A stretch of 64,000 nt of DNA, from assembly GCF_017348835.2 (NCBI RefSeq), contig NZ_CP071375.1; one strand, written 5' to 3'. The position numbers and the translations under genes were made by a program. The notes under the pieces are model-generated. The model was not told the origin of the DNA. It searched no databases and saw only the letters and a program-made list of their open reading frames with translations. This document shows, piece after piece, positions 1,815 through 20,874 of this stretch. The stretch is from Escherichia coli. GTDB lineage: Bacteria; Pseudomonadota; Gammaproteobacteria; Enterobacterales; Enterobacteriaceae. The number at the start of each line of letters is the position of its first letter. Within the stretch, counting starts at the first letter, position 1.

Positions 1815-2104
1815 TGGTGAATTTACGTAAAGCGGCTAAAGGCCAGATGTGCCAGATCAGAATCCCTGGCTACTGCAATCACAATCCCGAAACCTCTGTG
1901 CTGGCGCATTACAGGCTGGCGGGGACGTGCGGAACAGCGACAAAACCACACGATATGCAGGCGGCGATAGCCTGTAGCTCATGCCACGATCTAATCGACG
2001 GGCGGGTAAAAACCAGCGATTACACCAAAGAAGAATTGCGCCTGATGCATGCTGAAGGGGTTTTTCGCACACAAGAAATCTGGAGAAAGAAAGGTCATTT
2101 ATGA
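1814..2104 (+). CDS. YbcO-like prophage nuclease (DUF1364)
   Basis: 96 aa with the Cys-rich motif CQIRIPGYCNHNPETSVLAH...ACSSCHD, resembling DLP12 YbcO; the start overlaps the upstream stop. Confidence 0.65.
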   Translation: MVNLRKAAKGQMCQIRIPGYCNHNPETSVLAHYRLAGTCGTATKPHDMQAAIACSSCHDLIDGRVKTSDYTKEELRLMHAEGVFRTQEIWRKKGHL

Positions 2105-2643
2105 TTTACCCAACGAATACAGGAAAAAGCGGAGAACACCTTCGCCTCACCACGCTGGAAAGTGTCTGGATTCAGGGAAAACTACGTATGTGGGGGCGCT
2201 GGTCGTATATTGGCGGTGGCAGGTCAGGGAATATGTTCAATCAGTTGTTGGCATCCAAAAAACTGACGAAAACAGCCATTAATGAAGCCCTGCGCAGAAT
2301 GAAAAAAGCGGGAATAGAGAAAGCTGAGCTGGAAGCGTTTTTGCGAGAGATGATCAACGGCAAGCAAAAGAGCTGGCTGGCGCATTGTACTGATGCAGAG
2401 GCGTTATGTATTGATCGAGTCATAAGTGAGGTGCTGGCAGAGCATCCAGGATTGATTTGCATTCTCCGGCAACGCTATGAAGGGCGGGGGATGGCTAAGC
2501 GCAAAATGGCTGAATTGCTAAATGATGCACACCCAGAGTGGTGTTTTAGCACATGCGAAAAACGGATTGCTAATTGGTTAGCTGTTGCTGAGTATGCCCT
2601 ATATATTCCCATGCGTGAATCATTTGCTGAGAAAATGGCTTGA
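2101..2643 (+). CDS. Late-gene antiterminator Q-like protein
   Basis: 180-aa ORF overlapping the ybcO-like stop (ATGA), upstream of a terminator and of a phage-21-type lysis cassette; the call rests mainly on position. Confidence 0.5.
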   Translation: MIYPTNTGKSGEHLRLTTLESVWIQGKLRMWGRWSYIGGGRSGNMFNQLLASKKLTKTAINEALRRMKKAGIEKAELEAFLREMINGKQKSWLAHCTDAEALCIDRVISEVLAEHPGLICILRQRYEGRGMAKRKMAELLNDAHPEWCFSTCEKRIANWLAVAEYALYIPMRESFAEKMA

Positions 2644-2750: not shown

Positions 2751-3628
2751 ACGTCAGGAAAGCAGGGGAGAATGCTGCTAGTTGGGCAACTGGTCTTTCT
2801 GCTCCAAATTATAACAGAGACCAGTTATAGTTTCGGTGCTGTGTTTTTTTTACAATATTGTGATAACACATTGCTGGCGGGAGTTTTGATATTTCTTGGC
2901 AGGGGCTGATGATGCGTTATCCTGATGTCGTCAACTCATATAAAATGAGATGAGAGATCATTGCAGGGTGGTTTGTAATTCGCTGTTTAGCGGGACAATA
3001 TGTTGTCTGATACAAGACACCCGACGCCTCAGATTACTATAATAAAGACGAAGCATCCTTTGTATTGACCAACCGCCTGTTTAGGCGGTTCTTTCTGGGC
3101 TGGTTTATTGTATGCCAAATGATTATTAAAAAGGTTGTGTTAATAACAAAATCCGAAATAATATGCCTGCATATTTTTATCTTGCTTATATTCTGCATAT
3201 TGTGCATAGCAGGCTCATCCCTGCAATCAAAACTGTATGATGAGTATTTTTTGTTTTCCTTTTTTCCAGTCATCTGATGATGACCTGCTTCTTTTTAATC
3301 CGGATCGACATCAGTTTTTTAAGATAATTCCTGCGAGTTATATGCATAAATGCCACAAACTCCGCATTTTATGTGGTTGGGAGTTGCCGGGCGCGCAGTG
3401 AGTTTGCTAAGAAAACTCCTGCATGGTGAATCCCCCTGTGCGGTGGGGTGATACCATTAACCTTTTCTGTCGCCGACAGGTATCACGAACATTTTGTTCA
3501 CCGGGAGGCACCCGGCACCATGCACTTCAATAGATTCTCTCCACATTATGGATATTCTTTCAGAATATCCCACGCAGACTTTGTGTAAATGTTAACAAAT
3601 GTGCGTTTTATTTGATCTGATTCGCTGT

Positions 3629-3658
3629 TTGAGCGTCCAAAACAACGGTATATATAAT
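3629..3658 (+). promoter_or_regulatory. Sigma70-like promoter for the lipoprotein moron
   Basis: TTGAGC (3629-3634), 18-nt spacer, TATAAT (3653-3658), about 30 nt upstream of the 3688 start; SD gagga lies before the ATG. Confidence 0.4.
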
Positions 3659-3687
3659 CCTTTACTATATGACATATGTGAGGAAAA

Positions 3688-4116
3688 ATGGGTTTTCGTA
3701 GCGCATCAATTCTTACGTTGATTATTAGTGGGATTATTATCGGGTGCACTGATGCTGTATCGACAAATTATCATGACCGTACATCATATTACTCCGATAA
3801 AGCAATAGAGACACAGTATGTGAGTTCATCTGAACGTACTTCTGATGTTAGTGAGGATATCCGTCTGTATGCCCATCAAATCAAGAGCGCCATCGAAAAA
3901 CAGTTCGGGGATGCGAGTAAGTATTCAGGAAAAGAGTGTACACTGAGAATGCATATGGCCCCGAATGGCCTTCTACTGGAGGTTAAAAGAGAAAGTGGAG
4001 ACCTCGATTTATGTCGTGAAGCGATGAATGCGATAAAGAATGCTGATATACCTGCCCCCCCTTCGCCGGAAGTATATAAAGTATTTCAAAATGGGGTGCT
4101 GGATTTTAAACCCTGA
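3688..4116 (+). CDS. Outer-membrane lipoprotein with a TolA C-terminal domain III-like domain (moron gene 1)
   Basis: Signal peptide with lipobox IIGC followed by Thr at +2. The C-terminus YAHQIKSAIEKQFGDASKYSGKECTLRMHMAPNGLLLEVKRESGDLDLC...PAPPSPEVYKVFQNGVLDFKP parallels the TolA C-terminus (YAGQIKSAIESKF...GKTCTLRIKLAPDGMLLDIK...PKPPSQAVYEVFKNAPLDFKP, recalled from memory). Confidence 0.75.
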   Translation: MGFRSASILTLIISGIIIGCTDAVSTNYHDRTSYYSDKAIETQYVSSSERTSDVSEDIRLYAHQIKSAIEKQFGDASKYSGKECTLRMHMAPNGLLLEVKRESGDLDLCREAMNAIKNADIPAPPSPEVYKVFQNGVLDFKP

Positions 4117-4266
4117 TATTTATTGTTTTGTAATAAACGGTTTCGGCTTAGGTTTGTTCTGACACAGCTACGGCACTGAGCTAAATTTAGCGGATAGTCA
4201 GCTCTGAGCCAGTGGCGGACGTAACAACTACTATTGCTGAGATTTTAATGGATTGAGGAGCAAGAA

Positions 4267-4662
4267 GTGGGATTAAAGAAAATCGTTATGTTGACTTTTT
4301 GGGTCGGTTTTGTTGCGGGATGCACACCTTTACACCCTTCAGATTGCCACAAAACTACTGCTACAGGTAGTTGCAGTTCAGGACGCTGGGATGATCAGGA
4401 TGAATGGGGGGCGCAAGCGCGGGGAATCAGAGCTGCAATTAATGCCAAACTTGATGAGCCGCATAACTGGAAAGGGAAAAAATGCAGGTTGCATATGGAA
4501 TTCTCTCAGGATGGCACGGCGTTAAAAATATCTACCAGTAACGGTGATAAAGCCTATTGCGAAGCGATAAAGTCCGCAGCTCATAAAGCCAAATTTCCGG
4601 CCTTCAACAATCCGGAAGTCTACAGAGATTTTCAGAAATCTGGCTTTGACATGCGAGGTTAG
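4267..4662 (+). CDS. Second, divergent TolA domain III-like lipoprotein (moron gene 2)
   Basis: GTG start with SD gaggag; signal peptide MGLKKIVMLTFWVGFVAGC (lipobox VAGC, Thr at +2); C-terminal KGKKCRLHMEFSQDGTALKIS...FPAFNNPEVYRDFQ follows the same pattern as gene 1 and TolA-III. Confidence 0.65.
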   Translation: MGLKKIVMLTFWVGFVAGCTPLHPSDCHKTTATGSCSSGRWDDQDEWGAQARGIRAAINAKLDEPHNWKGKKCRLHMEFSQDGTALKISTSNGDKAYCEAIKSAAHKAKFPAFNNPEVYRDFQKSGFDMRG

Positions 4663-4787
4663 CTCTTCAATTACTATATCTCATTCATAGCAAACTGACA
4701 GATTTGATGATGTTCTATATACGAAACCTGTGATGTCAAGTCTGAGCTAATACAAATAAACATAATATCAGAGAAATACATTTTATT

Positions 4788-4811
4788 AGCTCGCTACGGC
4801 GAGCTTTTTAT
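4788..4811 (+). terminator. Rho-independent terminator closing the lipoprotein moron
   Basis: agctcgc-tacg-gcgagct followed by ttttta. Confidence 0.55.
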
Positions 4812-4913
4812 ATTGCATCGTCTCCAGCATATATATCAATTAAGGCTCTGATTGATGTGTCTGAAAGCCTACACATAATAACTATGCCATCCGTTCCGTG
4901 CGGAGGTGAGGCT

Positions 4914-5129
4914 ATGAAATCCATGGACAAAATTTCAACAGGCATTGCCTACGGCACCTCCGCAGGCAGTGCTGGCTACTGGTTTTTACAGTTGCTCGAT
5001 AGAGTAACTCCGTCACAGTGGGCTGCAATCGGTGTGCTGGGTAGTCTGGTATTTGGCCTGCTGACGTACCTGACAAACCTTTATTTCAAGATTAAAGAAG
5101 ATAAGCGCAAGGCTGCGAGAGGTGAATAA
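4914..5129 (+). CDS. Phage-21-type class II holin (pinholin S21-like) with a dual-start motif
   Basis: [26 protein letters not shown]... 71 aa from Met 4914; the MKSMDK arrangement matches the S21 antiholin/holin dual start; SD ggaggtgag. The ORF track extends upstream to 4857. Confidence 0.8.
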
Positions 5130-5626
5130 TGCCTCCATCATTACGAAAAGTCGTTGCTGCTGCTATTGGTGGCGGAGCAATTGCTATAGCATCAGTGTTA
5201 ATCACTGGCCCAAGTGGTAACGATGGTCTGGAAGGTGTCAGCTACATACCATACAAAGATATTGTTGGTGTATGGACTGTATGTCACGGGCATACAGGAA
5301 AAGACATCATGCTCGGTAAAACGTATACCAAAGCAGAATGCAAAACACTCTTGAATAAAGACCTTGCCACTGTCGCCAGACAAATTAACCCGTACATCAA
5401 AGTCGATATACCGGAAACAACGCGCGGCGCTCTTTACTCATTCGTTTACAACGTGGGTGCTGGCAATTTCAGAACATCGACGCTTCTTCGCAAAATAAAC
5501 CAGGGCGATATCAAAGGCGCATGTGATCAGCTACGTCGCTGGACATATGCTGGCGGTAAGCAATGGAAAGGTCTCATGACTCGTCGTGAGATTGAGCGTG
5601 AAATCTGTTTGTGGGGTCAGCAATGA
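5129..5626 (+). CDS. SAR endolysin (R21-like lysozyme)
   Basis: 165 aa with an N-terminal hydrophobic signal-anchor-release segment ([20 protein letters not shown]) followed by a lysozyme domain; start overlaps the holin stop (taATG). Confidence 0.8.
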
Positions 5627-6087
5627 ACAGAGTAACCGCGATTATCTCCGCTCTGGTTATCTGCATCATCGTCTGCCTGTCATGGGCTGTTAATCATTAC
5701 CGTGATAACGCCATTACCTACAAAGCCCAGCGCGACAAAAATGCCAGAGAACTGAAGCTGGCGAACTCGACAATTACTGACATGCAGGTGCGCCAGCGTG
5801 ATGTTGCTGCGCTCGATGCAAAATACACGAAGGAGTTAGCTGATGCGAAAGCTGAAAATGATGCTCTGCGTGATGATGTTGCCGCTGGTCGTCGTCGGTT
5901 GCACATCAAAGCAGTCTGTCAGTCAGTGCGTGAAGCCACCACCGCCTCCGGCGTGGATAATGCAGCCTCCCCCCGACTGGCAGACACCGCTGAACGGGAT
6001 TATTTCACCCTCCGGGAACGACTGGTAATGATGCAGGCCCAACTTGAAGGTGCTCAGCAATACATAACCGAGCAGTGTTTAAAGTAA
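5623..6087 (+). CDS. Rz i-spanin
   Basis: [47 protein letters not shown]... is close to lambda Rz; start overlaps the endolysin stop. Confidence 0.85.
5843..6028 (+). CDS. Rz1 o-spanin lipoprotein, embedded in the +1 frame of Rz
   Basis: [24 protein letters not shown]...[16 protein letters not shown]: lipobox plus Pro-rich region, fully nested inside Rz as in lambda. Confidence 0.85.
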
Positions 6088-6224
6088 AATCTTAACTACA
6101 ATATGATTCATTTTGATGATTGTTTCATAAGGAACAGTGAAGTAAGATCTAAGAGGAGTTAAATTTTATACAGTATAATCATAATATTGCAGCAAGGTGG
6201 TTATAATTGAAAGAATATTTAGAT

Positions 6225-7682
6225 ATGAATACATCTCATGTAAGAGTTGTTACTCATATGTGTGGGTTCCTGGTTTGGCTCTATAGTCTTTCAATGTTGC
6301 CACCAATGGTTGTAGCATTGTTTTATAAAGAAAAAAGCCTGTTCGTTTTCTTTATAACTTTCGTTATATTTTTTTGCATTGGTGGCGGAGCGTGGTATAC
6401 AACTAAGAAATCTGGCATTCAATTACGTACCCGTGATGGGTTTATTATAATTGTAATGTTTTGGATTTTGTTTTCTGTTATTAGTGCATTCCCTTTATGG
6501 ATTGACTCAGAACTTAATTTAACGTTCATTGATGCTCTGTTTGAAGGGGTTTCTGGAATAACAACAACAGGAGCAACTGTAATTGATGATGTTAGTTCAT
6601 TACCTCGGGCATATTTGTACTATCGGTCACAGTTAAATTTTATAGGTGGTTTAGGAGTTATTGTTCTGGCGGTTGCTGTATTGCCATTATTGGGTATTGG
6701 TGGTGCAAAGCTTTATCAGTCAGAAATGCCGGGGCCATTTAAGGATGACAAACTCACTCCCCGCCTGGCCGATACGTCACGGACACTGTGGATAACTTAT
6801 TCTTTATTAGGTATTGCTTGTATTGTCTGTTATAGACTTGCAGGAATGCCTTTGTTTGATGCTATTTGTCACGGGATTTCCACAGTTTCGCTTGGTGGTT
6901 TCTCAACTCATAGCGAGAGTATCGGATATTTTAATAACTATTTGGTTGAGCTGGTGGCTGGTTCTTTTTCCCTGCTATCGGCTTTCAACTTCACTCTTTG
7001 GTATATTGTTATTAGCAGGAAAACGATAAAACCTTTAATCAGAGATATTGAACTTCGTTTCTTTCTGTTAATAGCCTTAGGGGTGATCATTGTTACCTCT
7101 TTCCAGGTCTGGCATATAGGTATGTATGACTTGCATGGAAGTTTTATTCATTCGTTTTTTCTTGCCAGCTCCATGCTCACTGATAATGGTTTAGCTACGC
7201 AGGATTATGCAAGTTGGCCCACGCATACGATAGTGTTTTTGCTGTTGTCAAGTTTCTTTGGGGGATGTATAGGTTCAACTTGTGGTGGAATTAAGTCACT
7301 TCGATTTCTTATACTTTTCAAACAAAGCAAACACGAGATAAATCAGCTTTCTCATCCCAGAGCGTTGTTGAGTGTAAATGTAGGAGGGAAGATAGTTACA
7401 GATCGTGTAATGAGGTCTGTATGGAGTTTCTTTTTTCTTTATACTCTCTTCACGGTGTTTTTTATACTGGTGTTAAATGGTATGGGATATGATTTTCTTA
7501 CATCATTTGCAACAGTGGCTGCATGTATTAATAATATGGGATTAGGTTTTGGGGCTACTGCATCGTCATTCGGAGTGCTTAATGACATTGCAAAATGTTT
7601 AATGTGCATAGCTATGATTCTTGGTCGCCTTGAAATTTATCCTGTTATTATATTGTTTTCAGGTTTTTTTTGGCGCTCCTAA
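6225..7682 (+). CDS. trkG: Prophage-encoded K+ uptake protein TrkG (TrkH paralogue)
   Basis: 485 aa from MNTSHVRVVTHMCGFLVWLYSLSMLPP; AT-rich gene, same position after Rz/Rz1 as in K-12 Rac. Confidence 0.9.
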   Translation: MNTSHVRVVTHMCGFLVWLYSLSMLPPMVVALFYKEKSLFVFFITFVIFFCIGGGAWYTTKKSGIQLRTRDGFIIIVMFWILFSVISAFPLWIDSELNLTFIDALFEGVSGITTTGATVIDDVSSLPRAYLYYRSQLNFIGGLGVIVLAVAVLPLLGIGGAKLYQSEMPGPFKDDKLTPRLADTSRTLWITYSLLGIACIVCYRLAGMPLFDAICHGISTVSLGGFSTHSESIGYFNNYLVELVAGSFSLLSAFNFTLWYIVISRKTIKPLIRDIELRFFLLIALGVIIVTSFQVWHIGMYDLHGSFIHSFFLASSMLTDNGLATQDYASWPTHTIVFLLLSSFFGGCIGSTCGGIKSLRFLILFKQSKHEINQLSHPRALLSVNVGGKIVTDRVMRSVWSFFFLYTLFTVFFILVLNGMGYDFLTSFATVAACINNMGLGFGATASSFGVLNDIAKCLMCIAMILGRLEIYPVIILFSGFFWRS

Positions 7683-7819
7683 TATATGGCTGATTTATAA
7701 TTGTGAGTTTAATATTATGTTGACTCACTCATTGATCCAATACCTAACTTTACCAGCAACACCTCCGTCCCCAGTAGCACTGGCTGCTGGGGTGCGTTTT
7801 ATTCATAAAGCAAGGCTGT

Positions 7820-20455: not shown

Positions 20456-20874
20456 TTCATTAAATCCGCCAGCTTATAAGTTAATGTCTGTTTCGCGGTC
20501 GCCAGCGTTAACTGGTTCGCGGTCAGATCCACTTGTGCACCTTCTTTCAGCATTTCGCTAATGGTGTTATCGAGTTCATTAAGCTGCGGGTTAGCGCACA
20601 TCATACGGGTCATTGCCAGCCCTTTGGCTGTCAGTTCACCATTAGACAGTTTGCCTTCACCGCTAAAGCGGTTACACATGCTGCCGGAAATCATCATTTT
20701 TTCACCAAAGCTGATTTCTGGCGGATTTTTATCGCTGGTCACGGGCTTACCGTTTACGCTTTCCAGCACAAAGCGATGATGCTGTAGCTGTTCTGGCGTA
20801 ACAGCAATTTTGTCATTACTTACACATCCCGCCATCAGCAGGCTTAGCGCAACAAACGCGGCTACTTTCTTCAT
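20452..20874 (-). CDS. hslJ: Heat-shock lipoprotein HslJ
   Basis: 140 aa from MKKVAAFVALSLLMAGC; META-domain lipoprotein. Confidence 0.85.
   Translation of the reverse strand: MKKVAAFVALSLLMAGCVSNDKIAVTPEQLQHHRFVLESVNGKPVTSDKNPPEISFGEKMMISGSMCNRFSGEGKLSNGELTAKGLAMTRMMCANPQLNELDNTISEMLKEGAQVDLTANQLTLATAKQTLTYKLADLMN

Follow-up and report, generated by a model that had tools for sequence, protein, structure and literature searches.

Two adjacent genes of a Rac-family prophage of Escherichia coli, here called ORF1 and ORF2, encode small lipoproteins in which a signal peptide, a lipobox and a short N-terminal region are followed by a single homologue of TolA domain III (TolA-III). They lie between the gene for a Q-like late antiterminator and the holin gene in the window that we analysed, a stretch of 64,000 nt from contig NZ_CP071375.1 (assembly GCF_017348835.2); all coordinates given below are positions in that window. 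Judged by their sequences, both are functional genes that probably differ in what they bind, and they represent two cassettes, each mobile independently of the other, that have come to lie side by side here. The mechanism best supported by the sequences and predicted structures, which we put slightly short of an even chance, is that of an outer-membrane-tethered decoy against group A colicins and the g3p protein of filamentous phages.

The TolA-III homology of both products lies far beyond chance, in sequence and in predicted structure. ORF1 residues 55-142 (3850-4113) align without gaps to residues 334-421 of E. coli TolA with 52 of 88 positions identical (59%), and the protein matches TolA chains of the PDB at E = 5e-28 and Pfam PF06519 at E = 3.2e-23 (model positions 4-96 of 96). 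ORF2 is more distant, its residues 44-131 (4396-4659) being identical to the same segment of TolA at 27 of 88 positions (31%), again ungapped, with E = 5e-9 for the PDB TolA chains and E = 1.5e-14 for PF06519 (model positions 10-92 of 96). Both proteins keep the Cys363-Cys388 pair. ORF1 ends in LDFKP, while the C-terminus of ORF2, FDMRG, is beta-prone. In both AlphaFold2 models the core has a predicted local distance difference test (pLDDT) score above 90, and the N-terminal 40-50 residues are of low confidence. The top Foldseek matches of the two models are all TolA-III, a three-stranded sheet packed against helices, with template modelling (TM) scores of 0.92-0.96 and root-mean-square deviations of 0.6-1.1 Å: the predicted structure of ORF1 superposes on 2x9a_B, from the complex of If1 g3p with TolA, at 0.6 Å (TM 0.96), and that of ORF2 superposes on 3qdp at 1.1 Å (TM 0.92). 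An initial annotation of this DNA, made from the sequence alone, had aligned the first product with TolA-III, Cys pair and LDFKP end included, and had taken the second to be more divergent; in profile and structure comparison the likeness holds up for both proteins.

The same annotation had read both genes as lipoprotein genes with Thr at +2, and here too we agree. The N-terminus of ORF1 is MGFRSASILTLIISGIIIGC/TD, a signal peptide ending in the lipobox IIGC with Cys20 (codon 3745-3747), and that of ORF2 is MGLKKIVMLTFWVGFVAGC/TP, with lipobox VAGC and Cys19 (codon 4321-4323). Both fit the lipobox pattern [LVI][ASTVI][GAS]C, which is kept in all aligned homologues. Under the Lol-avoidance rule Asp at +2 is the signal for inner-membrane retention, so its absence from ORF1 and ORF2 predicts sorting to the outer membrane. 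Shine-Dalgarno sequences precede both genes (GAGGA at 3680-3684 and GAGGAG at 4255-4260). RefSeq starts ORF2 at a downstream ATG, giving a protein of only 124 aa; we prefer the 131-aa form with its GTG start because the shorter one loses the positively charged n-region of the signal peptide and because plasmid homologues have ATG where the window has GTG.

With a lipoprotein signal in place of TolA domains I and II, neither protein is a TolA orthologue, and the name “cell envelope integrity protein TolA” is for the same reason an over-annotation. In the NCBIfam models NF007065 and TIGR02794, built for full-length TolA, ORF1 and ORF2 align with the last ~95 profile positions only. Their NF007065 scores (107.8 bits for ORF1 and 53.7 bits for ORF2) are both below the cutoff of 213, whereas ORF1 reaches 75.6 against a TIGR02794 cutoff of 59.45 through the last 98 profile positions, that is, through domain III alone; hence its RefSeq name “tolA”. 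RefSeq is also inconsistent, calling ORF1 either “tolA” or a pseudogene depending on the genome, and the NCBI Prokaryotic Genome Annotation Pipeline (PGAP) flags it as “incomplete; missing N-terminus” in E. coli ECCHD184; the inconsistent annotation is seen at 20457-20717 of the ECCHD184 locus and at 9889-10263 of the SE11 locus. Both the “TolA” names and the tolA-pseudogene flags are wrong. The genes are already present in RefSeq and in PHROGs under automatic names (PHROG 5772, labelled “unknown function”, contains both window proteins), and the source names of family members are automatic annotation throughout.

The PGAP flag, together with the passage of ORF1 over the TIGR02794 cutoff by its terminal 98 positions only, might suggest decaying, functionless fragments of a captured tolA, a reading to which we give practically no credence and which we treat as ruled out: intact reading frames occur in hundreds of genomes, dN/dS (the ratio of nonsynonymous to synonymous substitution rates) in the domain is 0.06-0.24, and the signal peptide and lipobox of both proteins are acquisitions foreign to TolA. 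Moreover, proteins of this architecture are found in at least 51 clusters at 50% identity, and the genes come with ribosome-binding sites, a candidate promoter and a terminator (Table 1).

Table 1. Features of the slot between the late antiterminator and lysis genes, in window coordinates
Feature	Position	Strand	Evidence and remarks
Q-like late antiterminator gene (DUF1133 type)	2101..2643	+	phrog_753 “anti-termination protein Q-like”, E = 4e-79; left border of cargo slot
STnc100-type sRNA (small RNA) element	3391..3577	+	full-length match to Rfam RF02076; 86.6 bits (gathering score 47), E = 1.6e-18
Sigma70-like promoter, TTGAGC-18-TATAAT	3629..3658	+	10/12 consensus positions; putative function
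ORF1, lipoprotein precursor, 142 aa, ATG start	3688..4116	+	lipobox and TolA domain III
ORF2, lipoprotein precursor, 131 aa, GTG start	4267..4662	+	lipobox and divergent TolA domain III
Intrinsic terminator	4788..4811	+	hairpin 4788-4805 with 7-bp G+C-rich stem, then T-run
Holin gene (essD type)	4914..5129	+	phrog_9876 and phrog_20 holin; essD in SE11; right border of slot

The two genes differ in where purifying selection acts. Between ORF1 and its variant at locus L011, dN/dS is 0.59 in residues 21-54, a variable and probably disordered tether between the lipobox Cys and domain III, and 0.24 in the domain itself; the tether looks relaxed and the domain constrained. Between ORF2 and its Serratia homologue the corresponding values are 0.01 for the N-region (residues 20-43) and 0.06 for the domain, and for the whole gene of the ORF2 type dN/dS is 0.08-0.15 (all pairs except the near-identical pO157-like/IncK pair, whose dS is 0.01). 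The ORF2 N-region, TPLHPSDCHKTTATGSCSSGRWDD (4324-4395), contains two cysteines and is nearly invariant from Escherichia to Serratia. Since its constraint exceeds that of the domain, we take it to be a functional element and no passive linker. AlphaFold confidence is low for most of the ORF2 N-region (residues 1-39). The conserved ORF2 motif GSCSSGRWDDQDEWG is loosely like the TolB box of E colicins (DGSGW...W), with a different Trp spacing; its second Trp corresponds in the alignment to I337, which lies within helix 1 of the domain.

The initial annotation treated the pair as a two-gene moron of paralogous genes, the second a divergent copy of the first. Its moron-like signals stand, and mobility of the block is evident from phage mEp460_ev081, in which 3400-5130 recurs at 97% identity behind a Q gene of the PF03589 type in place of the DUF1133 type of the window. 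The wording as paralogue and copy is misleading, however, and a single two-gene unit gives way to two independent cassettes, because the domains of ORF1 and ORF2 are identical at only 25 of 88 positions, no more than ORF2 and TolA (27/88), and because each gene is found alone elsewhere. Tandem duplication was rejected as the origin of the pair on the same two grounds.

In other lambdoid prophages, several of them Stx-phage-like, an ORF1-type variant (~66% identity) occupies the Q-to-holin slot without an ORF2-type partner and with other genes around it; the Stx-phage-like carriers include prophages with nanS-p-like genes. A megablast search with one such variant found 136 complete E. coli genomes, with the match on the chromosome in every case. 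ORF2-type genes (~88% protein identity) occur alone on ~600 plasmids. It is flanked on pO157-like IncF plasmids by the psiB-psiA-hok leading region and toxB, and on IncK2/Z and IncI1/B/O conjugative plasmids it directly follows the relaxase gene. In Enterobacter and Serratia the ORF2 type is a single chromosomal gene outside prophages. Its neighbours on the Serratia marcescens chromosome (locus 6001-8736) are genes for GmrSD_N and HEPN proteins, a combination typical of defence islands, and chromosomal homologues in Enterobacter and Klebsiella michiganensis are set among ordinary housekeeping or fimbrial genes. Of 5426 complete E. coli genomes, 770 (14%) match a 1.5-kb query for the cassette pair as it stands in the window (3400-4900) at ≥99% identity and ≥80% coverage, and any match at all is found in 1371 of them, about one-quarter.

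Persistence of the pair is also seen within the window prophage. The same prophage is complete in E. coli SE11, where ~22 kb of head and tail genes separate a ParB/YnaK-like part from a tail-fibre part; in the window these two parts are joined in one 643-aa ORF (7820-9751, + strand; ParB/YnaK-like residues 1-142 fused to tail-fibre residues 141-643), from which we conclude that a deletion has removed the head and tail genes. Because of that deletion the prophage no longer forms particles, yet this derivative keeps the lysis cassette, trkG and the TolA-like genes, the last of them intact. The Rac prophage of K-12 is not known to carry the cassette.

TolA domain III is a requirement of all group A colicins and filamentous phages, and the two ligand surfaces mapped on that domain can be followed in the window proteins. 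On one, the TolB N-terminus, colicin N and g3p-N1 each augment strand beta3 (residues 415-421) through the backbone of D418 and K420, and a single proline substitution at either residue abolishes all three interactions (PMC4339652). On the opposite face, colicin A adds a strand at TolA residues 375-380 with assistance from K368, K379 and K396 (PMC3365938). ORF1 keeps LDFKP, LLEVKR, K379 and K396, and is the close mimic of the two, with both mapped surfaces preserved. ORF2 has E, S and H where TolA has the colicin A-site lysines K368, K379 and K396; since this site is lost and an extra N-terminal motif is conserved, its ligand is probably different or narrower.

We propose that both lipoproteins would be anchored in the inner leaflet of the outer membrane, with a free TolA domain III hanging into the periplasm. 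As TolA domains I and II are missing, neither coupling to TolQR nor transmission of force is possible. At this very spot the segments with which group A colicins and related bacteriocins bind TolA emerge through a porin, and the N1 domain of g3p arrives there too; the tethered domain could capture either by beta-strand augmentation, as on the real TolA, and invaders so captured would never reach the energised TolQRA machine. The outcome would be a lysogen or plasmid host that tolerates Tol-dependent killers and parasites. Expression would be driven by the cassette promoter in the lysogen and raised by Q-dependent read-through on induction.

The initial annotation had likewise suggested a decoy, for superinfection exclusion or colicin immunity, which is plausible, and several lines of evidence are consistent with it. 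The reported affinities of TolA-III are ~1 µM for colicin N and g3p and ~40 µM for TolB (PMC4339652), which means that a small amount of decoy could trap invaders while sparing TolB. Sequestration in the periplasm has been shown to work in the converse arrangement, in which periplasmic g3p-N1 sequesters TolA and confers colicin A resistance and 4-log lower phage uptake (PMC10424213). Carriage by I-type and F-type conjugative plasmids fits the proposal, the pili of these plasmids being the primary receptors for filamentous phages that depend on TolA. Levengood-Freyermuth et al. (J Bacteriol, 1993) reportedly obtained tolerance to group A colicins and Ff phage by exporting TolA-III itself to the periplasm. 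More generally, a protective accessory gene would fit the occurrence behind two different Q backbones, the intact state in a defective prophage, the presence in 770/5426 genomes, and the carriage by plasmids, and purifying selection on the domains also speaks for the decoy.

Other observations weigh against the decoy. Among 50,697 sequenced phage isolates, mEp460_ev081 is the sole carrier of ORF1/ORF2; no pilus, bacteriocin, tol or prophage genes were seen beside the chromosomal relatives examined; and no model in PADLOC-DB v2 matches ORF1 or ORF2 at E up to 1. Defence against filamentous phages cannot account for every carrier, given that pO157-like plasmids are non-conjugative and yet carry the ORF2 type, and that many relatives are single chromosomal genes. 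The cassette promoter is recognised by its match to the consensus, and its 18-bp spacer is not optimal. The strand that binds TolB is preserved along with the rest, so TolB could equally be the target, and a copy tethered near TolB-Pal might disturb Tol-Pal and carry a cost. Finally, at 31% identity and with its colicin A site lost, ORF2 may have another ligand.

A target in the Tol-Pal system would lead to a different function. A tethered TolA-III that bound the TolB N-terminus or CpoB would compete with TolA and weaken Tol-Pal; conservation of beta3 is compatible with this, as are the full tol phenotype of point mutations that block TolA-TolB binding (PMC4339652) and the hypervesiculation of tol mutants (PMC11032300), but we think it unlikely, since the affinity of TolB for TolA-III is weak (~40 µM) and a module that damaged Tol-Pal constitutively would exact a cost at odds with its presence in 14% of complete E. 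coli genomes. The expected consequence, more vesiculation and periplasmic leakage, is unlikely to the same degree. The position of the cassette within the late operon, immediately 5' of the holin gene, where Q would read through terminators, further suggests a version in which strong, late, Q-dependent expression softens the envelope before lysis or releases periplasmic cargo. A prophage gene of EDL933 termed TolA, a possible member of this family, is reported to be 32-fold up after ciprofloxacin (PMC11125564). This late version we also hold to be unlikely, considering that the cassette has its own putative promoter and a terminator, that plasmid and chromosomal homologues have no lysis genes nearby, and that the genes are intact in a prophage unable to make particles.

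Alternatively, the TolA/TonB-like fold may have been reused to bind something else, for instance peptidoglycan, a porin or a receptor in the outer membrane, in an envelope role unrelated to the ligands of TolA; one example would be a surface receptor blocked from the inside, as T5 Llp does with FhuA. We regard both the general form and this example as quite unlikely. ORF1, at 59% identity and with both mapped ligand surfaces kept, speaks against reuse, as do the family-wide conservation of the C-terminal strand, which is the augmentation site of TolA, and the lack of a candidate partner gene nearby. On the other side, TonB C-terminal domains share the fold and bind many receptors, and the superfamily described below is large and diverse, with most members being single chromosomal genes in unrelated contexts. 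This reading applies most to ORF2, which is divergent (31% identity to TolA-III, colicin A-site lysines lost) and has a constrained N-region whose dN/dS of 0.01 points to a specific partner for this protein.

Proteins combining a lipobox with TolA-III alone form a large, unstudied superfamily and are no phage-specific oddity, as an exhaustive search among 1.84 billion representatives indicates. This search yielded 130 clusters at 50% identity, 70 of which have a length of 105-175 aa, and 51 of these 70 have a lipobox. None of 48 aligned representatives has Asp at +2, in keeping with outer-membrane sorting. Across these 48 the conserved core of the fold comprises G360, K361, C363, D372, G373, G383, D384, C388, A394 and P401, and the C-terminal L-D-F-K strand is kept in 60-72% despite their divergence. 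Homologues of ORF2 make up 370 clusters at 78-89% identity, from Escherichia, Shigella, Citrobacter, Enterobacter, Klebsiella, Raoultella and Serratia. A third lineage is represented by a 144-aa lipoprotein (lipobox ITAC, 46% identical to TolA-III) on the conjugative IncFIB/FII plasmid pMR0617ctx of Klebsiella pneumoniae (NZ_CP024040.1, locus coordinates 4217-5246), with tblastn matches on ~310 plasmids, mostly of Klebsiella. On pMR0617ctx the gene lies directly 3' of a gene for a secreted thioredoxin-fold protein (DsbC/TrbB-like), which may aid disulphide formation in the third-lineage domain.

Extending the decoy proposal to this family, TolA-III-only lipoproteins might constitute an Enterobacterales-wide layer of innate protection against Tol-dependent bacteriocins and pilus-dependent filamentous phages, an idea that we hold as possible but on the doubtful side. 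Decoys on prophages, on conjugative and virulence plasmids, and in chromosomal islets would then neutralise invaders in the periplasm, and the ORF1, ORF2 and Klebsiella IncF types would each be tuned to different invader epitopes while TolB is spared.

In comparison with TolA itself (domain III structures 1S62, 3QDP, 1TOL and 2X9A), ORF1 and ORF2 share the fold, the disulphide pair and the C-terminal beta3 strand; they lack the inner-membrane domain I and the long helical domain II, and whereas TolA is encoded in the tol-pal operon, they are found on mobile elements with a lipoprotein signal predicted to place the domain on the outer membrane. In build and position they resemble Llp of T5, Cor of phi80 and N15, TraT of F and Bor of lambda, which are likewise small outer-membrane lipoproteins encoded at accessory or moron positions and acting from the periplasmic side; a preprint describes Llp as such a lipoprotein (bioRxiv 10.64898/2026.03.26.714494). 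Llp and Cor block the surface receptor FhuA, in contrast to the proposed mimicry of a periplasmic hub that titrates the invader, and their sequences are unrelated to those of ORF1 and ORF2. Exclusion by a small outer-membrane lipoprotein is thus known from Llp, Cor and TraT, and mimicry of a periplasmic hub would be a new variant of it. The periplasmic g3p-N1 construct (PMC10424213) works on a like principle, interrupting the import of both colicin and filamentous phage; however, the laboratory g3p-N1 and TolA-III constructs are soluble, overproduced and associated with tol-like envelope defects, whereas ORF1 and ORF2 are natural, selected and, as predicted, tethered and provided with their own promoter. 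The cassette also shares its place with stx and similar lambdoid cargo, which occupies the same slot between Q and the lysis genes and would follow the same logic of an own promoter plus Q read-through, the cargo being a toxin in the case of stx and an envelope lipoprotein here.

The initial annotation knew of no such system. We likewise found no functional description in the open-access full-text literature, and a 2020 review of Tol-Pal mentions neither a prophage nor a decoy. The fold, the lipoprotein signals, the distribution, the mobility and the purifying selection are shown here, and ligand binding, expression, localisation and phenotype are inferred from them, so that the cassette is best seen as a well-founded and cheaply testable lead and not yet as a proven system. 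Resistance is usually thought to require loss of the receptor or of Tol, the latter harming the envelope; if the decoy proposal is right, a mobile and dominant decoy would make broad tolerance of colicins and phages both cheap and transferable, with some match to the module in about one-quarter of complete E. coli genomes. It would then bear on colicin and bacteriocin therapeutics, on phage-display hosts, and on plasmid curing by pilus-specific phages. For Tol-Pal research, natural variants may separate invader binding from TolB binding.

With regard to the locus itself, both borders of the slot between Q and holin are as first described, with the qualification that the Q-like gene, annotated DUF1133 in its SE11 counterpart, is ~1 kb away from ORF1 and that the interval includes the STnc100-type element. 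This element, of a gammaproteobacterial sRNA family, sits in the leader 5' of ORF1 and marks where, at 3400, the block common to the window and mEp460 starts; it could be part of a late-operon leader or terminator, or a regulator; it is followed by a weak hairpin and T-run (~3572-3613) with a non-significant z of -1.6. Holin, endolysin, Rz/Rz1 and trkG follow 3' of the cassette, and no tRNA genes of the kind found in Stx phages occur between Q and the lysis genes.

The sigma70-like promoter put forward earlier is there as a consensus match, and its sequence is 100% identical in the window, phage mEp460 and E. coli SE11. A scan finds 11 promoter-like sites in 2.4 kb against 6.2 expected, for which reason a single match is weak evidence taken alone. 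The terminator likewise bears out what had been claimed: its hairpin folds at -13 kcal/mol (z = -3.6), and 0 of 200 shuffled sequences fold equally well. The spacer between ORF1 and ORF2 shows no terminator-like structure (fold z = -0.8), and a strong second promoter there was rejected, the only promoter-like match being 9/12 at 4159-4187. As neither a terminator nor a strong promoter was found between them, we assume that ORF1 and ORF2 are co-transcribed here, as is probable.

A second strong promoter-like site (AAGACA-18-TATAAT, 10/12) is present at 3014-3043 on the + strand, followed on its 3' side by a G+C-rich hairpin, AACCGCC...GGCGGTT, at ~3072-3089 with a fold z of -1.4 only; the region 3014-3095 could hold a candidate Q-dependent late promoter and early terminator. 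Just 3' of the Q-like gene (2677-2805) there are, on both strands, two matches to isrK that stay below its gathering score of 50, at 21.6 and 20.1 bits. The isrK RNA is tied to antiterminator control in Salmonella Gifsy prophages, and the matches here are probably due to chance.

At the start of the window, a 244-aa ORF (64-798, + strand) matches only the C-terminal third of PHROG 3964, a family with no known function (positions 520-775 of 779); either the ORF is truncated or its 5' part lies beyond the window start. The trkG gene (6207-7682, + strand) has a G+C content of 0.377, compared with 0.489 for the lysis genes and 0.42-0.46 for the TolA-like genes, a composition that fits a separate foreign origin.

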